This document shows, piece after piece, positions 1,101 through 50,406 of a stretch of 64,000 nucleotides of DNA (its first letter is position 1; each line of letters starts with the position of its first letter). Origin of the DNA: Ginglymostoma cirratum (lineage: Eukaryota); NCBI GenBank assembly GCA_024137785.1, contig JAHRHZ010000018.1, positions 51,620,229 through 51,684,228 on the forward strand, read 5' to 3'. The translations under genes were made by a program, and so were the position numbers. Under the pieces are notes generated by a model that did no database searches, was not told where the DNA came from, and saw only the letters and a program-made list of their open reading frames with translations.

Positions 1101-3112
1101 ATATGTCTATTCACTCTTTTCACACTTCTGCAATTTTGGACTTTTTCCATAGGACTAATAACATAGTATCAGTAAAATTGCTGGAGTGAATTTCAAATCT
1201 CTCACTGTATCTTTGGAAGAATATCAGCAAAAGCTGTCATTTATGCTACTTCTTCTGAGCTGCTGCTGATTTTCTGCCAATGTTACAGCGGGAGATCCGA
1301 AGTACCCCTGCAAGGATTCTAGCCAAGACTTATAGAGCACCCTACAACACTTTTGTTGTGAATCTGCATAAATCGTGACTGGTCCTTCATTCTGAGTACG
1401 AATAGAAATGTTTTTCTAATATTAATGCTGTGGATTTGCTTGTTTTGAATTTTATTGCTGAGTAAAAGAATTCTCTTTGGCTTCATATTTTATAAATCAA
1501 ACCACCTTCCTTCTCCAAACGTCTATGGAAAAAGGAAAGTTCATGTTTAAGGTCAACAATCTTTACTTTGGATATTTTTAGGCCCAGGATCAATGCACCC
1601 AGTAAGTTGCCTGGCTGTGCAGCCATTTGAATGCTCCTGTTTTCCACATGAGAAAGGGTACAATTCATTCCAGTTTCTACAGCATATCCCTTGCGTAAAA
1701 ATGATTAAAGATACAAATTAAAGATGCAATATTAATCAAAAGTCCTGCTGAATATTTGTGGAACAATAACCTTTAACGTTTTTTTCCCTGAAACTTGTTG
1801 TCTCTCCCAACAGATGTCCCCTACAGTCACCACCCTGTAGAAGAATTTAGAATGTGTAATTTGTAATTGATCAAGCAAAGAGAAAAACATGACCCCTGAA
1901 TTGCCAAACGATGATGTCAGGATTTAGTGGCTGTGTTGTTTTCAGAGATCAGAAGACATGACGGTTTAACAATGTGACTGGAGAAAACATTGAGTACAGT
2001 TGTACACAAATTTGGGCAAAAGCCTCTTTGTCTCTGTCAGATAGCATATACAACTTTTCAATTGCTGCAGTATGTACCGCATGAGTTGTTTGTATCTTCC
2101 CTCAGACTATCTTCTAAACACTAAACGTTAAGCTAATCTCCAAAAATGATTTTTAGAGGTGCTTCTATTTCTGAATACCCACGTCAACTTCAACAAAAAT
2201 AACCTTCAGTTTTTGCTTCACAATGGTACATATACACATTATTCTTATGTAACTTTAGCTGTTTTTGAATTTAATTTGCCTCAGTTTGGATCTCCTTTAG
2301 TTTTTCATTATTCCTGAACTGAGGAAATTAGCAATTCAATAATTATTTCTCTCCACCAATCAGGTATATTTCCCTTGTCCCATCCTGTCAGCTGGACATC
2401 CACGTACTATTAATTATCATTAATTTTGCCTAGTTCCTACCCACAATATATCACTTCTCTGATTTTCTTCTGTCCTGTTGCTGTCTCAACATTGAATTCC
2501 CTTTGACTAAGACCGTGGCTATCATCTCGGCAATTCCCTGCTCGAGCCATTGCAGCATCACCTATTGCCTGATCACAATGTCATTTCAACTTCCATGTTC
2601 TCCTCTCTCGGATACTTTCATGGTTAATCTCACCAACCCTCTTTCCATCCCCAGCATCCCACCTGCCACCATCTTTTTAGACTCCACCTGTGGATCAACA
2701 GGTTGCATCTGTTGCTCCCCGTTGCATCTTCCTCTATGTTAGTTTTATCTACATTTTACTTTGATGTTGATCGGGCAGGATTCAGCATGGAACCCAGTGT
2801 CTTCCTTTCATGTTGTCCTGGAGGAGCCTGACAACTTGTCAAACCTGAGGTCAACCAAACTTTAAGAAAATTTTCCAATCATCCTCCTGGCTCATTTAAA
2901 AACAGACTTAGCAGGATCAATCGACAGCACGTATGAATCATGGTTTGTCCTTAATACTTCTGGCGTAGCTACCAAACTGCAAATAACACATCATGAGTAC
3001 GTCTACCAGCTCTGATACCACTCTGGCCAATTGGCAGAGGCCATAGGAGCAGGTTGTTTATTATTCATGCATTTAAAGAAAAAATTAAAAGATCTTCCTA
3101 TCAAAGTGTAAT

Positions 3113-3617
3113 CTTACCCAGTTATAGGAAGGACGTTATCAAGCTAGAGAGGATCCAGAGGTGATTTACTAGGATGTTGTGAGGTATGGAAGGTTTGAGT
3201 AATAAAGAAAGGCTTGATAGGCTAGGACTTTTTTCACTGGAGCATTGGAGGTTGAGCGGTGACCGCATAGAAGTTTATAAAATCATGAGGGATATACTTA
3301 GGGTTAACAGTAGTTGTTTTTTCCCTAGGGTGTGGACATAGGTAGGGTTAATGGTGGGTGTCTTTTCCATAAGATGTGGGATTTCAAGACCAGGGGCACA
3401 TTCTTAAGGTAAGAGGAGCGAAATTTAAAAAAGACTTGAGGGGCAAATTTTTTTTACACAGAAGGTAGTTTGCATGTGAAACAAACTTCCTGAGGAAGTG
3501 GTGGAGGGATAAGGGCCAGGATCAGGCAAGTGGGACTAGTTTAGTTTGGGATTATATTCGGCATGGACTGTTTGGACCGAAGGGTCTGTTCCTGTGCTGT
3601 ATGACTCAATGACTCTA
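3113..3617 (+). mobile_element. CR1 (HER1-like) LINE 3' fragment
   Basis: Encodes a decayed RT C-terminus (YRKDVIKLERIQR.FTRML...LGLFSLE..RLSGD..EVYKIMRG) and ends in a (tatgactc)n tail. Homologous to 25630-26198 and 33245-34100. Confidence 0.9.
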
Positions 3618-4599
3618 TTAATCTAATCAAATGATGAGCCTACTACTTCAATTCATCCAAAGATAGATTGTTAAGGATCTTTTCTGAGGGAGAAAGTGTT
3701 TAGAAAACCAAGTTAGTGCCACCAGTCGTCCTGTGCCTATGTTGTTTTATCTGCAAGGTTCTTAAAATAATTCTAAACTGGCAACTATTCAAGTTAGAAT
3801 TGTGTCAGTGATTTTCTGAAACTGGATAATAAATCTACACAGCAGCTTTCCAAAAAGTCCTAGAGTGTTTCCCTTGCTGTGTACAGTAATTAGTATTAAA
3901 TAACCATTCATGGAAACATAATGATTAGCTTTTTCATGATTCACATTTTTGTTCACAGCCAAATTCTGCTATTTAAGAAGACAAAGGTAAATTTTAAGTG
4001 TTTTTGAACCAACATTAACCCTTCTACTTGCTGTCCATTTCAAGCATCTCCAAATGTTGCTTTGGTGATAAATCAGTAAAAAGCTTGGCTAAAATTCCCA
4101 ACAAATCATATCCACAAACTGTTTACGTTTGTAACAATTTATTGTGTGAACAAAGCTATCAGTGGAAATGGAAACATGTCCCATGTGATGACATTATGGC
4201 ATCATTATTGGTATGTGTGAAATTTGTTTCAAAAAGATTTCTTTTGGTAAATTAACAAATGAAGTGGTGAGGGCAGTTGGGAGCAGTTGGCTGTCCCTAG
4301 CACCCTGAGTAGGTCATAGGTTTACAAACTTGACTTGCAGCCTGGCAAGATGTACCTCTTATGACCAAAGCTTCCTGTAGCTCTGCTCTACACGTACTGC
4401 ACTTGTTAGAATGTTTAGGTGGTACCAGAATGGCGTTTCCACAACATTATTGAATTGCCACCATGTCAATTCGTTGAATGATAGGAAAGCCCATACAAAA
4501 TCAGCAAAAAGCTTCACTTTTGAAATGTTCTCCCAAAGGAGCAAATGGACTCCTTAGATACTAATCAATCCCTAAAGGAGATGGAGTGCCTTTCCCTGG

Positions 4600-4762
4600 G
4601 GACTTTGTCAGGCCTCAGTCTCGCTCCTTGAGATGGTGAGCATTCAGCTGAGACCTTCACAAGAAGGTAGCTCAATCCCTCATTCTCCAGGGAAATTAAT
4701 GGTTTGGTCATAAATGTTAGCATTAAGAGATGTCTACTTCCCATGAATGATGAATAAAAAAA
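4600..4762 (+). mobile_element. Decayed 3' tail of the APE-type LINE / tRNA-SINE family also at 24389 and 39170
   Basis: caagaaggtagctca...cataaatgttagc...cccatgaatgatgaataaaaaa resembles the tails at 24680-24752 and 39750-39845. Confidence 0.5.
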
Positions 4763-4904
4763 GGGAGGTGTTTGTCCATAGCAAAAATGCCTTTAGCAAA
4801 TTAGAACAATTACAGGAGAGTGATAGCTTGCAGAACTGGCTAAGAGCAGGACTCCTTTAAAATGAGCATTCTTTAAGGGGTCGCCTGATAGTTTTTAGGG
4901 GTTG

Positions 4905-5115
4905 GTTAGTGCCATTAGCTCGATCAGCAGAGTATGATGCAGAATCAAGCCAACTGCACAGGTAAGGCCCCTGTATTTGCTGTGGTAGTGAATGGAAGCC
5001 TGTCTCATCACCTTACTTCAGACATGTGAAGTGGTTACCCTCAAGCTAAACATTACCTGTTATATTTCTCCATAATGGACAGAAATGTCTATGATCCTTT
5101 TTAGGCTCTGATTCC
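4905..5115 (+). mobile_element. tRNA-derived SINE (second family), decayed
   Basis: A-box-like tagctcgatc. Body gtggttaccctcaagctaaac matches the reverse complement of 30810-30990. Confidence 0.55.
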
Positions 5116-5142
5116 TAATATGCAATTGAGGTTTTTAACAGT

Positions 5143-5280
5143 GAGTTCTGAACAAGGGCCATTGGACCTGAAACATTAACTCTTTCTCTCCACAGATGTT
5201 GCCTGACCTGCTGAGTTTTTCCAGCAATTTCTGCTCTTGTTTCTGATTTCCAGCATCTGCAGTTCTTTCAGTTTATTTTT
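5143..5280 (+). mobile_element. PLE terminal fragment with a degenerate hammerhead (GAGTT...AACTC subtype)
   Basis: GAGTT-CTGAACA-AGGGCC ATT GGACCT-GAAA-CATT-AACTC (5143-5182), then ...cctgacctgctgagttttt...ccagcatctgcag tail. Confidence 0.75.
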
Positions 5281-5409
5281 AAAGTATAGGCAGGTCTGGG
5301 AGCAATTGTAAGGAGAATCTTATATTTGGTTTGGATAAGTAAAAACTGTGTTGGATTTTATGGAGAGATTCTCACTAAGAAGTCCAGCAAGATTTTTCGC
5401 CTTATCTTA

Positions 5410-5890
5410 TTTACTTGATCCCTATGACATCCTTCACATTTTACATTAGGGTTTCCCTTCCACCTTCAATCCCACTAACCTCCATATTCAACATTTCATC
5501 CTCTACCCCATTTGGAACATCTCTAGGGTGATGCTACCACCAAAAACATTATTCCCTCCTTAATGGTCCATCTCTCCTTCACACCATGATTATGACACCA
5601 TCTTTCCCAACACCACCTCCTTTTTCAATGGCACCTTTCCAAGCAAGCTTAGATGATGCAACACCTGTCCTTTCACCTCCACTCCTCCCATTGTGCATTC
5701 AGCAAAACTAAATTAACTAGTATCAGAATAGTAGTTACTTTCTGAAGTTGTTAAACTCAATATTGAGTACAGAAGGTTGAAAAGTGCTGAGGCAAAAAGT
5801 GAGGTGTGGTTCTTGGAGCTTGCATTAAGCTTAATCCGAATGCTGGGCTGAATGGTCAGAGTGGGAACAAAATGGGGAATTAAAGAGGTA
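5410..5890. pseudogene. Rearranged Neptune-type PLE remnant: RT/linker on +, GIY-YIG end on -
   Basis: Plus strand ~5625-5690 gives GTFPSKLR*CNTCPFTS (cysteine linker). Minus strand ~5740-5885 gives ...CKLQEPHLTFCLSTFQPSVLNIEFNNFR, homologous to the end of the 8584-8964 ORF. Confidence 0.65.
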
Positions 5891-7307
5891 CACCAGTTCT
5901 GTCAGCTCCCTTTCCCGCAAAATGTTTTGATCTCTTTGCTAAGCATCCAACCATAGTCCAAGCCTGAGACTCCAGATAAACCCAACTTATCCAGCAAGCT
6001 TGTGAACCTGGTGTCACTTTACTGACTCAACAGTTCCAATGCAAGCTAGAAGTCAAAAAAACCCTGGTCTGGAATTTCTGTCCTCAGACCCCAAATACTT
6101 TTACAATTAGGTTAGTGTGAGTTTTTGAGGTCTTCAGTAAATCTGATGGAAAACCAGAACCTAACATGTCAGTGTCTAGACCTAATAACCAACTCCTTCA
6201 ACCTATTCCCTTCAAAGTACTGCAAGAATTGATCAGAAAGTTTGCAGAGTTTCAACTCAATATTCTGCAAACTTAGCCCATGCCCGTTGAACCTGTGCTC
6301 CTTTTCCATGCCAGCCTGGTGAATCAGCAAGTACGGTGATTAGTTATCTTCCTTTAAGCCTTAAGTATGGTCAGGCTGAAACATTTGGCAATGAACAATT
6401 GGAGTGAGGTTAAGCCTCCATTGGTAGACACAACAAATGTGATTCTTAAACAAGTAGGGTTACATTATTCTATCCTAAATGGTTGAGCTAGACAGGCTCA
6501 TCTATCATACCACAGGTAAACTCACCACTGGATGTGTGGGCTTTGTATATTGCACTTCAGAAAGCTTGGTGTTTGTAGCAATAAGGAGGCCCTGGCTGTG
6601 AAAATGATGGCCAGTTTTGTACTCAGCACTTCTGTCATCTCTTTTCATTTGTATTTTTCACTGATTATAACAATTAATCTTATGGACTGTTCCTCATGCG
6701 GTAGAAACCAGTATCTTTTCAAGAAGGGGTGATATTGGTGAACTTGTAAATTGCATGGTCCCAACAATTAGAGTAGAAGATGTCTGTTTGGGAATTCAAA
6801 GTCGATAAAGGTAGTTTTCTGAGGTGGAATTCCTTGACTTTGAAAGCACATAGTGGCAGCTTTGCCAGGCAGGATATTCATACAATACAAGCAAATACAA
6901 GAGGCTTTTCAAAGCAGGCTGTGTTTTATTGTTCAAATGGATAATACCTAATTATTGCCATATTAATCGCTTTAAACCCAACAATTGATTTTAACACCAA
7001 TATATAGCAACTTAAACAGGCAGTTGAATGGTACCACTCAAAACCATGCATCAGTTTTGAAACAACAGTTTTCTCAGTAGAATATAATTAGAACATTATA
7101 AACTATTACAGCCTAAGTGCGAACTGTAAAAGATTAAATATTAATGGCTAAACTATCCATAGAGGTGAAGGTCTTTCATCTGTGATTCCTCATTTATAGC
7201 TAATTGTCACGGTGCTTTCACAACACATGTGATCGCTTCGATGTCAGGATCGAGTGAATGATTAAAGTTTGGGGCAGTGAGATTAAGACAAGAAGAGTGA
7301 CAATGAG

Positions 7308-7489
7308 ATAGTAGGAACTGCAGATGCTGGAGAATCTGAGATAACAAGGATGAACACAGCAGGCGAAGCAGCATCAGAGGAGCAGGAAGGCTGAAATGAA
7401 GAAAGGGTCTAGGCCCGAAACATCAGCCTTCCTGCTCCTCTGATGCTGCTTGGCCTGCTGTGTTCATCCAGCTCTACACCTTGTTATCT
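7308..7489. mobile_element. Fold-back (palindromic) PLE-end mini-element with 15-bp TSD
   Basis: Arm 7339-7394 is inverted at 7423-7489 (left arm has an internal deletion). The loop holds a hammerhead remnant tgaagaaagggtctaggcccgaaacatc. Flanks are aagagtgacaatgag (7293-7307) and aagactgtcaatgag (7490-7504). Confidence 0.85.
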
Positions 7490-8282
7490 AAGACTGTCAA
7501 TGAGGCCCATTCTGTCTTTGACAAAAAACCTTTCTTTTGTTTTCAGCCACAACAGCACTGTCCTCCAATAACCGACAAAAAGCTTGCTTCTTATAAAGAC
7601 AGCTACTGATAGTTGGAATGCTGGTACGTCTATCCATTTAGCCTAAAGTAAGTGGGATGCACCTCTATGAGGTAAACAGCAAGATGGGACTTGACACTGA
7701 TAGCAAATCAAACCCTTCTCCATCACCCAAATTACAAGAACACGTGCAGTTTAATTTTCAGGAAAGAGAGCCTTAGCTGAGAAGAAACAACAGAGGTGAC
7801 TGCCCTAACAATGAGTTAGATAAGCAGAATGGAGCTTGCTACTTCATTGGAGGGGATCCAAAGGAAAGAGATAATTTGACATATTTTCATTCCTCCACTC
7901 TTGAAATAACGAGATAAGAAACATAAAGTAATTAGTATGATCAATCACCTTTCACTTTACATATTGTTCAAAACCTTAGATAGTACATGAAGGCATCCAC
8001 AGTAATATTCAATAAATAACTTCCACTGAGATTAAGCACAGCACTTGTCTGAAATACCTGAGGAGCAGGGCAATGCCAGCAGGCACATGTTTGAAGGTGA
8101 TTGTTGATGTGAACGGTGAATCATGTAGAGGACATGTCTCATTTGCCGTCCAAATAAGATTTCGAATGGAACGCTTCAAATGAAATCTTATCAGATCTGG
8201 ACTCCATTCAAATCCTAGATAACAAGGTGTGGAGCTGGATGAACACAGCAGGCCAAGCAGCATCATAGGAGCAGGAAAGCTT

Positions 8283-8310
8283 GACGTTTCGGGCCTAGAC
8301 CCTTCATCAG
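8283..8310 (-). ncRNA. Minimal hammerhead ribozyme motif, intact core
   Basis: Minus strand reads CTGATGA-A-GGGT CTAG GCCC-GAAA-C-GTC. Confidence 0.75.
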
Positions 8311-8583
8311 AAATGGGGGAGGGGAAGAGGGTTCTGAAATAAATAGGGAGAGAGGGGGAAGCGGATAGAAGATGGAGAGAGGAGAGGATAGGTGGAGAGG
8401 AGGCAGACAAGTCGGAGAGGCAGGGATGGGGCCAGTAAAGGTGAGTGTAGGTGGGGGGGGGTAGGGAGGAGATAGGTCAGTCCAGGGAGGACGGACAGGT
8501 CAAGGGGGCGGGATGAGGTTAGTAGATAGGAGATGGGGGTGGGGCTTGAGGTGGGAGGAGGGGTAGGTGAGAGGAAGGACAGG

Positions 8584-8964
8584 TTAGGGAGGCGGGGACG
8601 AGCTGAGCTGGTTTTGAGATGCGACTGGGGGAGGGGAGATTTTGAAGCTTGTGAAATCCACATTGATACCATAGGGCTGCAGGGTTCCCAGGCTGAATAT
8701 GATTTGCTGTTCCTGCAGCCTTCGGGTGGCATCATTGTGGCATTGCATGAGGCCCTGGATGGACACGTCGTCTGAGGAATGGGAGGGGGAATTGAAATGG
8801 TTCGCGACTGGGAGGTGCAGCTGTTTGTTGCGAACTGAGCGCAGGTGTTCTGCAAAGCGGTCCCCAAGCCTCCGCTTGGTTTCCCCGATGTAGAGGAGGC
8901 CACAACAGGTACAGCGGATGCAGTATACCACATTGGCGGATGTGCAGGTGAACATCTGCCTCAC
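8584..8964 (-). CDS. GIY-YIG endonuclease domain of a PLE ORF (open but 5'-truncated; no RT)
   Basis: VVYCIRCTCCGLLYIGETKRRLGDRFAEH...VANHFN...EQQIIFSLGTLQPYGIN shows the GIY/YIG motifs, conserved R, E and N, and the CxxC/H/H zinc-finger residues. Confidence 0.85.
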   Translation of the reverse strand: MRQMFTCTSANVVYCIRCTCCGLLYIGETKRRLGDRFAEHLRSVRNKQLHLPVANHFNSPSHSSDDVSIQGLMQCHNDATRRLQEQQIIFSLGTLQPYGINVDFTSFKISPPPVASQNQLSSSPPP

Positions 8965-9171
8965 CTACACTCACCTTTACTGGCTCCATCCCCGCCTCTT
9001 TGACTTGTCTGCCTCCTCTCCACCTATTCTCTCCTCTATCCATCTTCTATTCTTTTTAAGCATTGTTAAGAAGTCAGCATGCTTCTTATATTCAGGTGAA
9101 TAAAAAATCTTTAAATGTTGCATCGTTCAAAAGTGCAGACAAATTATGCAGTGCTTTAGCATCTTAAATAA

Positions 9172-9308
9172 AGGCAAAACACTGTGGATGCTGGAAATCT
9201 GAAACAAACACAGAGAATGCAGGAGGAACTCAGCAGGTCTGACAGCATCAATGGGGAGAGAAACAGAGTTAATGCTTTGAGACCAGTGTGATGCTTCTTC
9301 CGAACTGA
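9172..9308 (-). mobile_element. Older PLE terminal fragment with a decayed hammerhead
   Basis: gatgctggaaatctgaaacaaacacagagaatgc...gagttaatgctttga...ttcttccgaact, the same layout as 10675-10783. Confidence 0.65.
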
Positions 9309-9979
9309 GTTTCTTGATTATTCTCTGTGTTCGGTGCTCTAACATCAAATAGTTTGCAGTCAAATGCACGAATTGTAATTGTTTTTACTGTATTTTCTGT
9401 GTAAATTATTAGAATGTTGCATGCAGTTATCAATGAGCCCTAATGATTGCGTGATTTAAATGTTCTTTTAAGAGTGTGAAGGATTGGAATTGGATAGTCA
9501 GAGTTAAAATGGTTTAACCTCAATATTAATCCCCACGGGGCAGGCAGAAGGAGATTTAAAAAACTAAAATCGGTGATGTGACCCCAAACAGCAGTATATC
9601 CTCTTATTGCAGACTTTTATAGGTTTATAGGGGACTGAACATCCCATGACAGATAGGCAGGGTACTTCCTGAAATTGTTTTACCCAGTTTCCACAGTGCA
9701 ATTAGGAGCCTAATTTAAATTACGCCTCTCTGGGCTAATATGCTGAAAAGCCCCACTATTTTTCAGACATATCAAATATTAAAATCTTTTTAAAATTACA
9801 AACAGTGCTCCAATTTACCTGACGTTCAGACCAAGGTTCATAGGAAGCATGGACCAGGTTTCTTTATAAGACAAGAATTATTGTTTTCTACAAGTAATTA
9901 GACTTTAACTACAAGTAAACAGATATAAACTATTGGCATATAACATCACTAACTAAAACTTCAATCACCTTATTAACTT

Positions 9980-10057: not shown

Positions 10058-10674
10058 GCCAACAAATGGGGATAATAGATTAATATCGGAGGTAGAAAAA
10101 CTGGCAAGTCAGTTCAGTGGACAACGCTTTTCAATTCCAATTTTCAGATGAGCCTTATTTGGTTGGCCAGACCTCTTGTTCACATCTTTCTCTCCTGCTT
10201 CCATTGGCTTGCAAGAGGTTCAGAGTAACTGATTCACTTGAAAAATGTCTCTGCGTTATCAATTTAGCTCACAGCAACAGCTGCAGAAAGGTAATTGATT
10301 TACTTCAGGTTTCAGCTATGTTTTTGACGGTAGAGAACAGGCAGCTTCTGGACTTGGAGAAGATCACCACACTTCTTTTTCTCTCTTCTCTCTGTTTCTG
10401 TAACTTGTTTCCAGCTCCAAGCTGCTCAGTCATGGAGAGCCAACCAAACTGTTGTTGGCAAGCAAACTGTCACTAGTCCACAGATCAATCAACTTCTTGT
10501 TGCCATCAAGAGCTGCATTGGTATGTACTCTCACCTCCAGGTTGTTTCCAATCCGAACTTCAATTCCTGCTTACACAAACAGTTGTTTCCAATGCCAGCC
10601 AAGGTGTCATGTTACTTACTTTCAAAACTGCAGCCATTCTTTTAAATATTGACTTTTAAAACAGCTCTTCTCAT

Positions 10675-10783
10675 TTCAGAAACAAAAACAGAAATTGCTG
10701 GAAAAGTCCAGCAGGTCTGGCAGCATCTGTGCAGGGAAGTCAGAGTTAATGTTTTGGGTCTGGTGACCCTTCCTCAGAACTCA
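10675..10783 (-). mobile_element. PLE terminal fragment with hammerhead (GAGTT...AACTC subtype, GAAA mutated)
   Basis: Minus strand 10782-10743 reads GAGTT-CTGAGGA-A-GGGTC ACCA GACCC-AAAA-CATT-AACTC. Confidence 0.75.
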
Positions 10784-11565
10784 TTTCAGTCTTTTTTTTT
10801 TAGACACAAAGATAAGAACACATGGTCCTTACACAATGAAAGAATGTCATTCAAGAAGGTGTATGCAGTTAATAGCATTCTTTGTGGTTCAGGAGTGGTT
10901 CCCCACTGCTTCAAAGGAACCTTAACCCTCTGTTCTATTGCTTGGGCTCCCCTGCCTCTATCCACTGAGAATTCTCCACCAACCTTGATTTATCAATAGC
11001 CTTCCTCCTGATCAATGAGGATCACCCCGAAGAATGGGTGGTTATGGCTTCCTATCATTAATTGATCCTGTCAAATTAACAACTGAATTAAGCAAAGAAA
11101 TTCTGAACCCGAAGACTCAGACAGCAAGTACAGGTTTCCCTTTGTATGATATTACTTTGTTCAAAACATTGACTATTATTGAGTTCATGAAGAATTATTC
11201 TTATGGCAGTCTAAAAGGTATCTTTTTCCAGTTTGGAACTGTATCTCCTTCACCCATTATCTCCCTGTTTAGTTTAGACTATTATTCTGGAATAAATTTG
11301 TCTTCATTGTTTTACCAATTCATGGCAGTAAAGTTGGGCTGCACAGTGTCGCTGGTGTTGGTGTTAGGTCAAGCTCCAAAACAAACTGCTGGAAGATTTC
11401 TGAGCATCTCTGGTGTGGTCCACACACTGATACTAGCACAGATTTGTTGTGCAAAGTCTTAAAACAAGCAGAGCAACTGGATGAGGATGGTGAATGAAGG
11501 AACAATCCACCATCTTGGACTGTGGAAATCCAGTACCAGCATCTGTTAATCATAGGTAAGTTGTC

Positions 11566-36620: not shown

Positions 36621-36720
36621 GAGATAACAAGCATGGGGCTGGATGAACACAGCAGGTCAAGCAGCATCATAGGAGCAGGAAAACTTGACGTTTCGGGCCT
36701 AAACCCTTCATCAGAAATCA
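36621..36720 (-). mobile_element. PLE terminal fragment with an intact minimal hammerhead (36687-36714)
   Basis: Minus strand CTGATGA-A-GGGT TTAG GCCC-GAAA-C-GTC, with the tail shared with 8217-8310. Confidence 0.85.
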
Positions 36721-47190: not shown

Positions 47191-48391
47191 AGCTGGCCAT
47201 GGCTAAGTTTATCTTAGGGTGTCCCTGAGGTGTGAGATTTTAACCTGAAATCACAGGTACTTGGTTACTGCTGTGAACTATCGGCAGGAGCAAATATTAC
47301 AGAGACCTTTAATATCTCTAGTGACCTGATACTTTTTCCCATCCAGTATTGCCACCAGGCATTCTTCCTTCTTGATAGGTACATGTCTCAGCAATTTTCA
47401 GTGGTGCATCCTTGGCTCCATCCCCTTCCCCTGCCAAAACCAATGCCTTGAAATACAGGCTTTTTTGAGTCCATGTTTTGTGAAAATCATTTTTAGGTTT
47501 ATTAACCGTACATGGGGTTTCCCCTCCAACATGTGTACATTCTCACAAAGTGTGCAAATAAAAATGGGGAATGAGGGCCTCTTCATACCTCCTCAGGAGG
47601 TTTGCTGTTTGGCTTTCTTGCCCTTGGGGAAACTTAATTTTGGATCTGCTATATCTTGTTTGGTCAATGCTGGTTTCATGAAACTTGACCAATCTGTTAG
47701 TCACATGATCGCTATGGCCATTTTAGGCCTGTGTTTTTAATCCCTTCCTAAAACTACTTCAATCCTTGAAATTCCCAGATAATATGCTGAACAACAGAAT
47801 TCAAAATCACATATTTATATTTTATGCCATCATGATCCTCGATTGAGATCCTCGATTAATACCTGAATCTTGTTTCACAATATGACAGCAACACAAACCT
47901 GGACATGTATCATGAGTATACTGGGATCAGATGAAAACGCAGTTGCTCATGAAATAACGAAGCAATATTTAAGTAGTAAACAAAAATTAATTTAGTTGGA
48001 CCAAATCATCCAGTTCTGACTTATGAAGCTGAAAGCACTGCTTTTCTTCACTTAACTGGCACTCTAAATGGCATTTGAAATCGATGTCCATTACCAGGGC
48101 CCCGGGAATTTGCAGGGCATGCTGAGACCCAGCAATACTGCGTCCACGCAATCTTCCAATCATTCTGTCACACTCATGCCAGAATCACGTGCTCAACTGT
48201 TGAAAGAATTTGGCTCCTTTGTGAACTTCCACTAACCCTACACTGGAGTGTCAGTGCAGTAAGCTGCAGCGGTCACTGATGAATATAGTCAGAAAGCAAT
48301 TGCCGGATTCAAGGCCCCTGAAGATTTCAGTCAACATAATTATTGTTCCTTGGTGCTAGAAAGCACCCAAAAGAGTACTGAAATATATCAA

Positions 48392-48605
48392 GAGCTGCCG
48401 ATGCTGGAGTTAGAGATAACACAGTGTGGAGCTGGAGGAACACAGCAGGCCAGGCAGCATCAGAGGAGCAGGAAAGTTGACATTTCGGGTCGGGACTCTT
48501 CTTCAGATCTTTTCTGAAGAAGGGTCCCGACCCGATACATTAGCGTTCCTGCTCCTTTGATGCTGACTGGCCTGCTGTGTTCCTCCAGCTCCACACTGTG
48601 TTATC
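48392..48605. mobile_element. Fold-back PLE-end mini-element with back-to-back hammerheads and 15-bp TSD
   Basis: Near-perfect inverted repeat 48415-48507 / 48513-48605. Hammerhead on minus (48479-48506) and on plus (48514-48541, GAAA mutated to GATA). Flanks actgaaatatatcaa (48377-48391) and actgaaaaataacaa (48606-48620). Confidence 0.9.
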
Positions 48606-50406
48606 ACTGAAAAATAACAATTATCTTTGCCTTTGAAATTCTACATGACAGTGTATGTGCCATCTTTGTTGAAAGACTCAACTGTTTCTTGGACTTCTAT
48701 GGTGATCAATGGATCTGTATTTGATTATGCGAATCTCTTCTCCATTGAAGTTAACTGTGCTGGATTAGTTAAGCCTGGATGTGGACTCAGACTAAACCGT
48801 TAAGAACTGTGGAGGTTGCTAATGTCAGCATCACAAGGACCAGATATTTTACTGTACTGAATAAAATGTGTTACATAGAAACGCGGGTTCCATCTCTACA
48901 GAGCTCCAAGACATAAAATATACAACAATGTCCAATCAGTATTTGCTTTTAAAATATCGATCTGAATCAAATGCTCCAGATATACATCACCCATCAGATC
49001 AGCTTTGAACTTTAATATACAGCATAATTGCAGTCACAGACCTCAGGCGCTTGTTTCATATAACTGCCAGTTTTAACTCAAACCTATAAAACCCGACAGA
49101 AGAATCCATGCTACACTGACTCTTTATACAATTTTTTTTTGCAAAGATGTGTTCTCCTGTTCACAATCTTTTTGCTGTACAATGCAGCTTACATCCTGCT
49201 TCATGCCTGTGGTGTTTCCACGCCATATTTTACATGTAAAAGAATTCCAAAGTGGGACAACTCTGCCTCTCCAATTGGAAACCAAAAGATTGATATTGTG
49301 ACACGGCACTGTTTCTCTGAGGGCAAAAAGACATCATTCGAAGGAATTGCAGATTCTTTCTAATGATTTTGGTTTCTAACCAGAGCAATGCACTTTTTCA
49401 GCAAGTTAGTGAAGAAATTAGTTGTTCATTCTAAATATGTTATTAAGTCAGAAATACTTGAAAGTGAACGTTTTGCCTGATTTATTTATTTACATTTTTT
49501 AGAAATAATATGGAGAAATACATCTACTAATCACCAAGCCAGCAGCAAAGAGGTTAATGTTCACTTTTAAGTAGATACAGCTATTACACGTAGCGGAATT
49601 TCTTCACCAGTTTTAGGTACTGCTTGGTAAACCAACCAAATGAGATAAAGCAGCTTTAATAGTCCATAACATTGCAATCACTTCATGTTGTGACCCACAG
49701 TCAAAATCATCATTTAAAGTACTGATTAATGAACAACATACTTAAATCATACTTAAAAGCAGGACAGCACCACTCCTTTCTAATTGCAAAACTGAATTTA
49801 AAAAGTCACACAGCATAAACAGTGTAAAAGAATGATAGTTTCTGTACTTCAGCTACCAATTCTTTTGAGGTCAAGTGTACCCTGTATTATATTTTATTCC
49901 AATAACATATACCTCCTACAGAATCTCCTGGAGTCTGCTGCAAATTGCTTTCTTGTGTATCTGCTTTAATGATGGAATGTAATTCTCCCTGTGAGCATCT
50001 TCTGACACAAGGAAAGCATATCACACAAACTGCAACATTATTTAAATTAAAGTTCCCTACAACACTGATATTAATTAAAATAACTACTCTCAGGTTAGTA
50101 TTAAGAAGTATTACAGTTTTGCTGTTCTTTACAATAGAGATTGCACACTAGCTAAGAGAAGAAGCAGAACAAAAGCTGGCTGTGTCTTCCACAGGCTGAG
50201 CCAAGCCTGGAGAGTCAGCATAGTCAATGGAACAAGAAAAAGAATTCCCAGATTGGGTTTGTCCCAAGTTGGAGTTTGGGTTAATTGAGATTTCAAATTC
50301 ATCCTCTAACACAGGAATTGAAATCTGGTTCCTCTGGATACAAATGCAAATCTAAACATCAAAAATTGTTCCTATTAGAATGGTCCTAAATTTGAGCAAA
50401 TTTTCT

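Follow-up and report, generated by a model that had tools for sequence, protein, structure and literature searches.

Two head-to-head ends of a Neptune-type Penelope-like element in Ginglymostoma cirratum: an old insertion probably assembled anew at its landing site

The insertion at 48377-48620 and its parent element

The present analysis concerns a window of 64,000 nucleotides from contig JAHRHZ010000018.1 of Ginglymostoma cirratum, in which an insert of 214 bases, mirror-image in structure and non-coding, consists of two head-to-head arms bounded by a target-site duplication (TSD) (Table 1). Positions within the arms are counted from +1, the T just before the hammerhead core; on this scheme the short arm ends at +93 and a full tail at about +127. 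An earlier note on this DNA had described a near-perfect inverted repeat of ~93 bp; arms of 93 nt each are indeed present, but they pair at only 84 of 93 positions (90%). The 5-nt centre and the 23-nt Penelope-like element (PLE) tail on the left side only were found as that note had them, the tail being about 11 nt shorter than the 34-35-nt tail usual in the family and the left flank agreeing, by eye, at 7 of 11 positions with the part of the tail that is absent. Folded as RNA, 48377-48620 gave -181.4 kcal/mol (z = -20.8), and none of 200 shuffles did as well. About 850 bp to the right of the element (window 49455-49573) lie two inverted stretches of 18 nt, 89% alike and 83 nt apart, probably a chance occurrence. 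With regard to host gene context, no exon was recognised in the window among the frames read by eye.

Table 1. Features of the insertion and of a related fragment in the same window
Feature	Position	Strand	Remarks
Target-site duplication, left copy, 15 bp	48377..48391	+	13/15 identical to right copy
Long-arm tail, 23 nt	48392..48414	-	ends at ~+116; usual family end +123 to +128
Long-arm pLTR core, 93 nt	48415..48507	-	inner end +1; sense strand minus
Decayed minimal type-I hammerhead motif	48479..48506	-	against subfamily majority: C15.2->U and one broken helix II pair (mismatch)
Centre TCTTT, 5 nt	48508..48512	.	two templated T from the short arm and 3 extra nt
Short-arm pLTR, 93 nt, without tail	48513..48605	+
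Decayed minimal hammerhead motif	48514..48541	+	against subfamily majority: A14->U, G16.2->A, C17->U; predicted inactive
Target-site duplication, right copy	48606..48620	+	adjoins short arm directly
Sister-subfamily PLE 3' fragment: tail-less arm, C-rich 3' region, GIY-YIG frame 8584-8964	8218..9050	-	PF01541, E 1.4e-4, at gathering score

The two flanking 15-mers were the best-matching pair around the element ends, and among 400 random 32-mer pairs 0.5% had a flank score of 10 or higher, which supports the 15-bp TSD proposed earlier. The exact junction between the right copy and the short arm is seen in other family copies as well. Contigs of two related organisms, one with ~95% flank identity (organism A) and one with ~92% (organism B), enter the arms from both flanks; the site is filled in each, and no empty site was seen at the orthologous locus in the contigs of either. 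The insertion is thus older than those splits. Its arm-to-arm identity lies near the subfamily median of 91%. The element is a single old insertion, since decayed, and it bears no sign of function.

The arms are, by their sequence, the terminus (pLTR) of a Neptune-type EN+ PLE. Copies extending inward pass through a C-rich region and then into a GIY-YIG frame (PF01541). A CX4CxxC linker was present in a locus of the element's own subfamily (L063), and a locus of the sister subfamily (L181, 1293-3962, minus strand) has a frame of 890 aa, free of stops, that shows DKG, RT-like motifs, the CX4CxxC linker and, at its C-terminus, GIY-YIG; of these Pfam reported the GIY-YIG only and no RT domain, the RT-like motifs there having been read by eye. 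One catalytic RT motif in this copy looks altered. A layout of DKG, CX4CxxC linker and GIY-YIG is that of Neptune and Nematis (PMC8557442, sections covered), and the label Neptune-type is based on the linker together with the vertebrate distribution. Long "open frames" at fetched loci were discounted, being mostly unreadable bases in three of the four loci inspected.

The window holds other members of these families, and the fragment at 8218-9050 shows which element the arms belong to. A tail-less arm bearing the element's 3' body, like that fragment, lies at 1-235. A second two-armed stub, of the sister subfamily, was found at 7285-7504 with its long arm on the left and its short arm on the right; its centre cuts into the ribozyme motif and its flanks match at 13 of 15 positions. 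One-armed termini of related, more diverged PLE families occur at 5147-5267, 9162-9317, 10673-10788 and 36621-36715, and where their core can be read these too end a few bases upstream of it.

Arms, joints and inner ends across the family

An exact 38-mer of the arm is present 3,762 times in the 4.36-Gb genome. Ninety anchors were obtained from 93 of the first 100 listed matches, with three second hits merged and 7 matches left out, and inserts were counted as two-armed where 60 nt or less separated the arms, which held for 41 of the 90. Nearly all of these (39/41) were shorter than 300 bp, and the stub form accounted for 39 of the 90 sampled anchors. In each of the 41 two-armed inserts a long arm ending at +123 to +128 was paired with a short arm ending at +66 to +106, mostly +89 to +100. 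Among the short inserts with a single arm, that arm was long in 20 cases and short in 9, and the probability of 41 long-plus-short pairs under independent arm choice is about 8e-16. Looser BLAST pairing over all loci gave 116 such pairs among 123, the remaining 7 including one clear long-plus-long and one clear short-plus-short pair. TSDs of 8-18 bp with a score of at least 8 flanked 32 of the 41 two-armed inserts, as against 1.5% of random pairs. This family comparison supports the earlier proposal that the element is a complete, TSD-flanked, non-coding insertion representing an extreme-truncation product of PLE inversion.

The short arm reached deeper inward in 18 of the 41, the long arm in 13, and the two lay within 4 nt of each other in 10, a comparison that later deletion at the centre could blur; each arm thus often holds sequence that the other is without. 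The joints (n=41) comprised 12 overlaps, 7 blunt junctions and 22 with inserts, often pieces of arm ends, a pattern characteristic of microhomology-type end joining. Some one-armed inserts have no tail and yet a TSD of their own, so that +93 can prime alone, and an arm without a tail may be followed by hundreds of bases of body. At L137, L138, L140, L145, L148, L150 and L151 the short arm extends only to +36 to +62 and adjoins the TSD there, from which it appears that priming can also begin well short of the usual +93. The arms of one insert shared subfamily alleles at 0.62, compared with 0.215 when shuffled. Within the subfamily they shared the site-31 variant only (10/13 vs 0.285 shuffled; other variants 0.062 vs 0.058), and a single shared RNA template is therefore at most a possibility; the element itself is discordant between its arms at site 31. 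Arm-to-arm conversion was considered and rejected, CpG changes being shared no more often than in the shuffle (0.07 vs 0.10; 0.16 vs 0.13).

Inner ends were counted for 86 anchors, four having been dropped with inner ends adjoining unreadable bases, and 16 lay at +9..+56, 16 at +1..+8, 34 at -1..-8, 3 at -9..-99 and the remaining 17 beyond -100. Per nucleotide, ends occurred at a rate of 0.129 at -1..-8 versus 0.002 upstream and 0.004 at +9..+56, that is, the ends meet a wall just upstream of the core. Exact genome-wide counts gave 19,624 arms diverging at -3, 7,797 at -4 and 4,656 at -5, with 18,965 continuing to -7. About half of the listed C-rich upstream contexts have a motif 30-32 nt before an A at -3, and by promoter consensus we take the motif to be TATA-like and the A initiator-like; the same motif also reads as antisense AATAAA. 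Stops are commonest at -2 and not at the initiator-like A, and -2 is also the 5' edge of hammerhead helix I, so that trimmed RNA or an RT pause fits equally well. A G before the inner end, as expected of a cap, was found by eye in 30, 25 and 19 of 100 listed matches, which is near background and gives no sign of a cap. We consider the chances about even between a promoter start in the pLTR and trimmed RNA or an RT pause. In the sections covered, TATA and Inr motifs are reported in the pLTR of rotifer Pen2a_Av (PMC3846280) and a TATA-less internal promoter for D. virilis Penelope (PMC2377424). At the ribozyme cut site inner ends did not accumulate (3 of 112 arms at +25..+34), in agreement with the use of uncleaved RNA as template in vitro (PMC11167929, sections covered).

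Hammerhead motifs and the predicted hairpin

A hammerhead-like motif occurs on each strand beside the centre, as the earlier note had claimed, the two lying back to back and 7 nt apart; neither is intact, however, and both carry changes in core or stem. The changed bases are given in Table 1 by what are presumably their hammerhead position numbers (A14, G16.2, C17, C15.2). The CUGANGA...GAAA core with its NUH site is lost in the plus arm and kept in the minus arm, where C15.2 and the helix II pair depart from what an active hammerhead has. A fully intact motif was found in 20 of 78 subfamily arms. An Rfam scan of the element returned no hammerhead hit at E <= 10, only chance hairpins below gathering score, and the element contains no second hammerhead on the same strand with which a dimeric fold could form. 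A single minimal hammerhead did not cleave in vitro in the work covered from PMC4209133. Changes among arms in helix II and helix I were one-sided only, with no ribozyme covariation. The lower divergence of the core (0.021 vs 0.040) was set aside, being confounded by the choice of loci.

A competition between hairpin formation and self-cleavage, which had been suggested, would have little to act on: both motifs are mutated, and a lone minimal hammerhead did not cleave in vitro. In a read-through RNA the whole core is predicted to be paired within the hairpin (probability 1.0). The stub, having neither the putative promoter nor an ORF and having decayed, is predicted to be inert except for this hairpin when it is read through. 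It is plausible, by analogy, that such hairpins are ADAR or Dicer substrates; heavy editing has been reported for a lizard Penelope and for a palindromic frog repeat (PMC5625713, sections covered).

Origin of the stubs

Exact search of the genome gave 2,686 back-to-back centres of 30 nt or less, and hand arithmetic puts the subfamily palindromes at ~4,000-6,000; at several fetched loci two-armed inserts often contain stretches of unreadable bases, so that these counts may err either way. One locus (L094) has an inverted duplication of 1.4 kb (2019-3425 and 6433-7839, 99.8% identity), with a short arm terminating one copy and a long arm the other, either a recent rearrangement or an assembly artefact. 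The presence of thousands of similar palindromes of 150-270 bp agrees with a suggestion of the earlier note, namely a non-autonomous fold-back family of retrozyme/MITE-like kind. Such a family would propagate itself, with the PLE enzyme acting in trans. A few centres of 2-7 nt do recur among stubs, and two copies 49 kb apart with unrelated flanks (L164 and L165) have in common a complex 19-nt centre found nowhere else in the genome, which local conversion or repeated repair chemistry could explain. A TSD is present at one of these two and not at the other. When junctions were compared, however, centres were distinct in 40 of 41 (those fetched out of 50 listed among the 2,686). The element's 18-nt centre has 3 matches in the genome, the other 2 not belonging to this family, and by eye it was absent from 28 other distinct best hits, among which two pairs share simple centres of 2-4 nt. 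The stubs also differ from MITEs and fold-back elements, in that TSD length varies (8-18 bp), the two ends are unequal and dispersed copies have, with few exceptions, no internal sequence in common, and they contain neither head-to-tail hammerhead repeats nor the putative promoter. Because nearly all centres differ and that of the element occurs in no other family copy, this is not a self-copying MITE or retrozyme, and propagation of stubs from stubs is scarcely credible; each was likely assembled anew at its landing site.

Two other routes were considered. Fold-back self-priming, in which one cDNA or antisense template snaps back to serve as its own template and resolution by the endonuclease leaves the second end 34 nt short, has been published as a hypothesis for PLEs with an antisense template (PMC3846280, sections covered). 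It accounts directly for the long-plus-short rule, and both the overlap microhomology at 12 of 41 joints and the subfamily alleles shared between arms are in its favor, but a copy of the long cDNA cannot supply a short arm that goes at least 5 nt deeper, as in 18 of 41, nor the hundreds of bases of body in some tail-less arms, and it cannot give the tail-less one-armed inserts with a TSD, by which +93 can prime alone. We therefore regard it as unlikely. Loss of the body from a longer inverted-pLTR insertion through palindrome instability is a poorer prospect again and appears quite improbable: longer two-armed copies are known (463, 863 bp and more), and asymmetry is common among the centres, which often intrude on the ribozyme motif, yet the same wall (-1..-7) bounds one-armed TSD-flanked inserts in which there is no palindrome, and random deletion should have left many ends at -9..-99, where only 3 of 86 were seen.

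The preferred reading, to which we assign a probability of about 0.78, is that the element is an old insertion of two head-to-head Neptune-type PLE ends assembled anew by priming at both nicks and joining of the cDNAs. The PLE endonuclease would nick both target strands ~15 bp apart, and each nick would likely prime RT, one from the start at the tail end (~+127, here ~+116) and the other ~34 nt upstream, at +93. Each cDNA would extend as far as the 5' end of a short RNA beginning 2-4 nt before the ribozyme core, possibly made from a TATA/initiator promoter in the pLTR, and microhomology-type repair would then link the cDNAs at their free ends, giving a centre unique to each insertion. An anole PLE protein cuts and extends both strands in vitro, starts RT at two sites that bound the tail, uses uncleaved RNA and is predicted to form a dimer (PMC11167929, sections covered). 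It is possible, and offered here only as a tentative extension, that the stubs record a coupled step in which a PLE dimer sits on one short RNA, its subunits priming different nicks at different fixed starts, and the strong-stop cDNAs are end-joined.

L1 twin priming is alike in that RT is primed at both of two target nicks, with microhomology joining the products. What L1 inverts is a different part of the RNA, whereas the PLE stub has the same 93 nt twice.

Several features of the stubs are already published, namely the inverted pLTR, the one-sided tail, the TSD and the pairs of hammerheads on opposite strands, and comparisons with published systems refer here to the sections of each source that were covered. 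Pen2a_Av (PMC3846280) and other EN+ PLEs (PMC8557442) are alike in having head-to-head 5'-truncated pLTRs, a one-sided tail of 30-40 bp, a short TSD of variable length and a hammerhead in the pLTR; the stubs differ from those insertions in that no body or ORF lies between the arms and the inner ends stand at a fixed wall. The motifs resemble PLE minimal hammerheads (PMC4209133) in the CUGANGA core, the extra base before helix II, the palindromic ACGU replacing helix III and the very short helix I. PLE dual hammerheads are described there as 100-700 bp apart on opposite strands, and the element differs in that its motifs are 7 nt apart and back to back, with both mutated and no dimer partner on the same strand. 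Poseidon PAc of Anolis (PMC11167929) is alike in its in vitro behavior, with two RT starts bounding the tail, both strands cut and extended and ribozyme cleavage unneeded, but it belongs to a different clade, no difference of start site between strands is reported for it, and neither coupled long-plus-short palindromes nor an inner wall is described in the sections covered. Non-LTR retrozymes (bioRxiv 10.64898/2026.07.22.740005) are likewise non-coding and derived from PLE pLTRs with a type-I hammerhead; they are head-to-tail tandems with intact ribozymes, whereas the element is head-to-head, single and decayed. In openly readable text, no paper beyond those cited here was found on these stubs or on coupled or twin priming in PLEs; supplements, those of the retrozyme preprint among them, may list such repeats.

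The origin of the inverted ends and one-sided tail of PLEs is described as unresolved in the sections covered of PMC8557442. Any model of PLE insertion has to account for the counts behind the long-plus-short rule, the arms' symmetric depth and the inner wall. Thousands of stub hairpins could add to the dsRNA load. If coupled priming by a dimer is true, a single step would yield both the inverted pLTR of PLEs and their one-sided tail, and would have seeded this genome with thousands of 200-bp hairpins that are possible ADAR substrates. The element itself is an ordinary decayed repeat copy, and the class of stubs to which it belongs matters modestly, as a mechanistic record.
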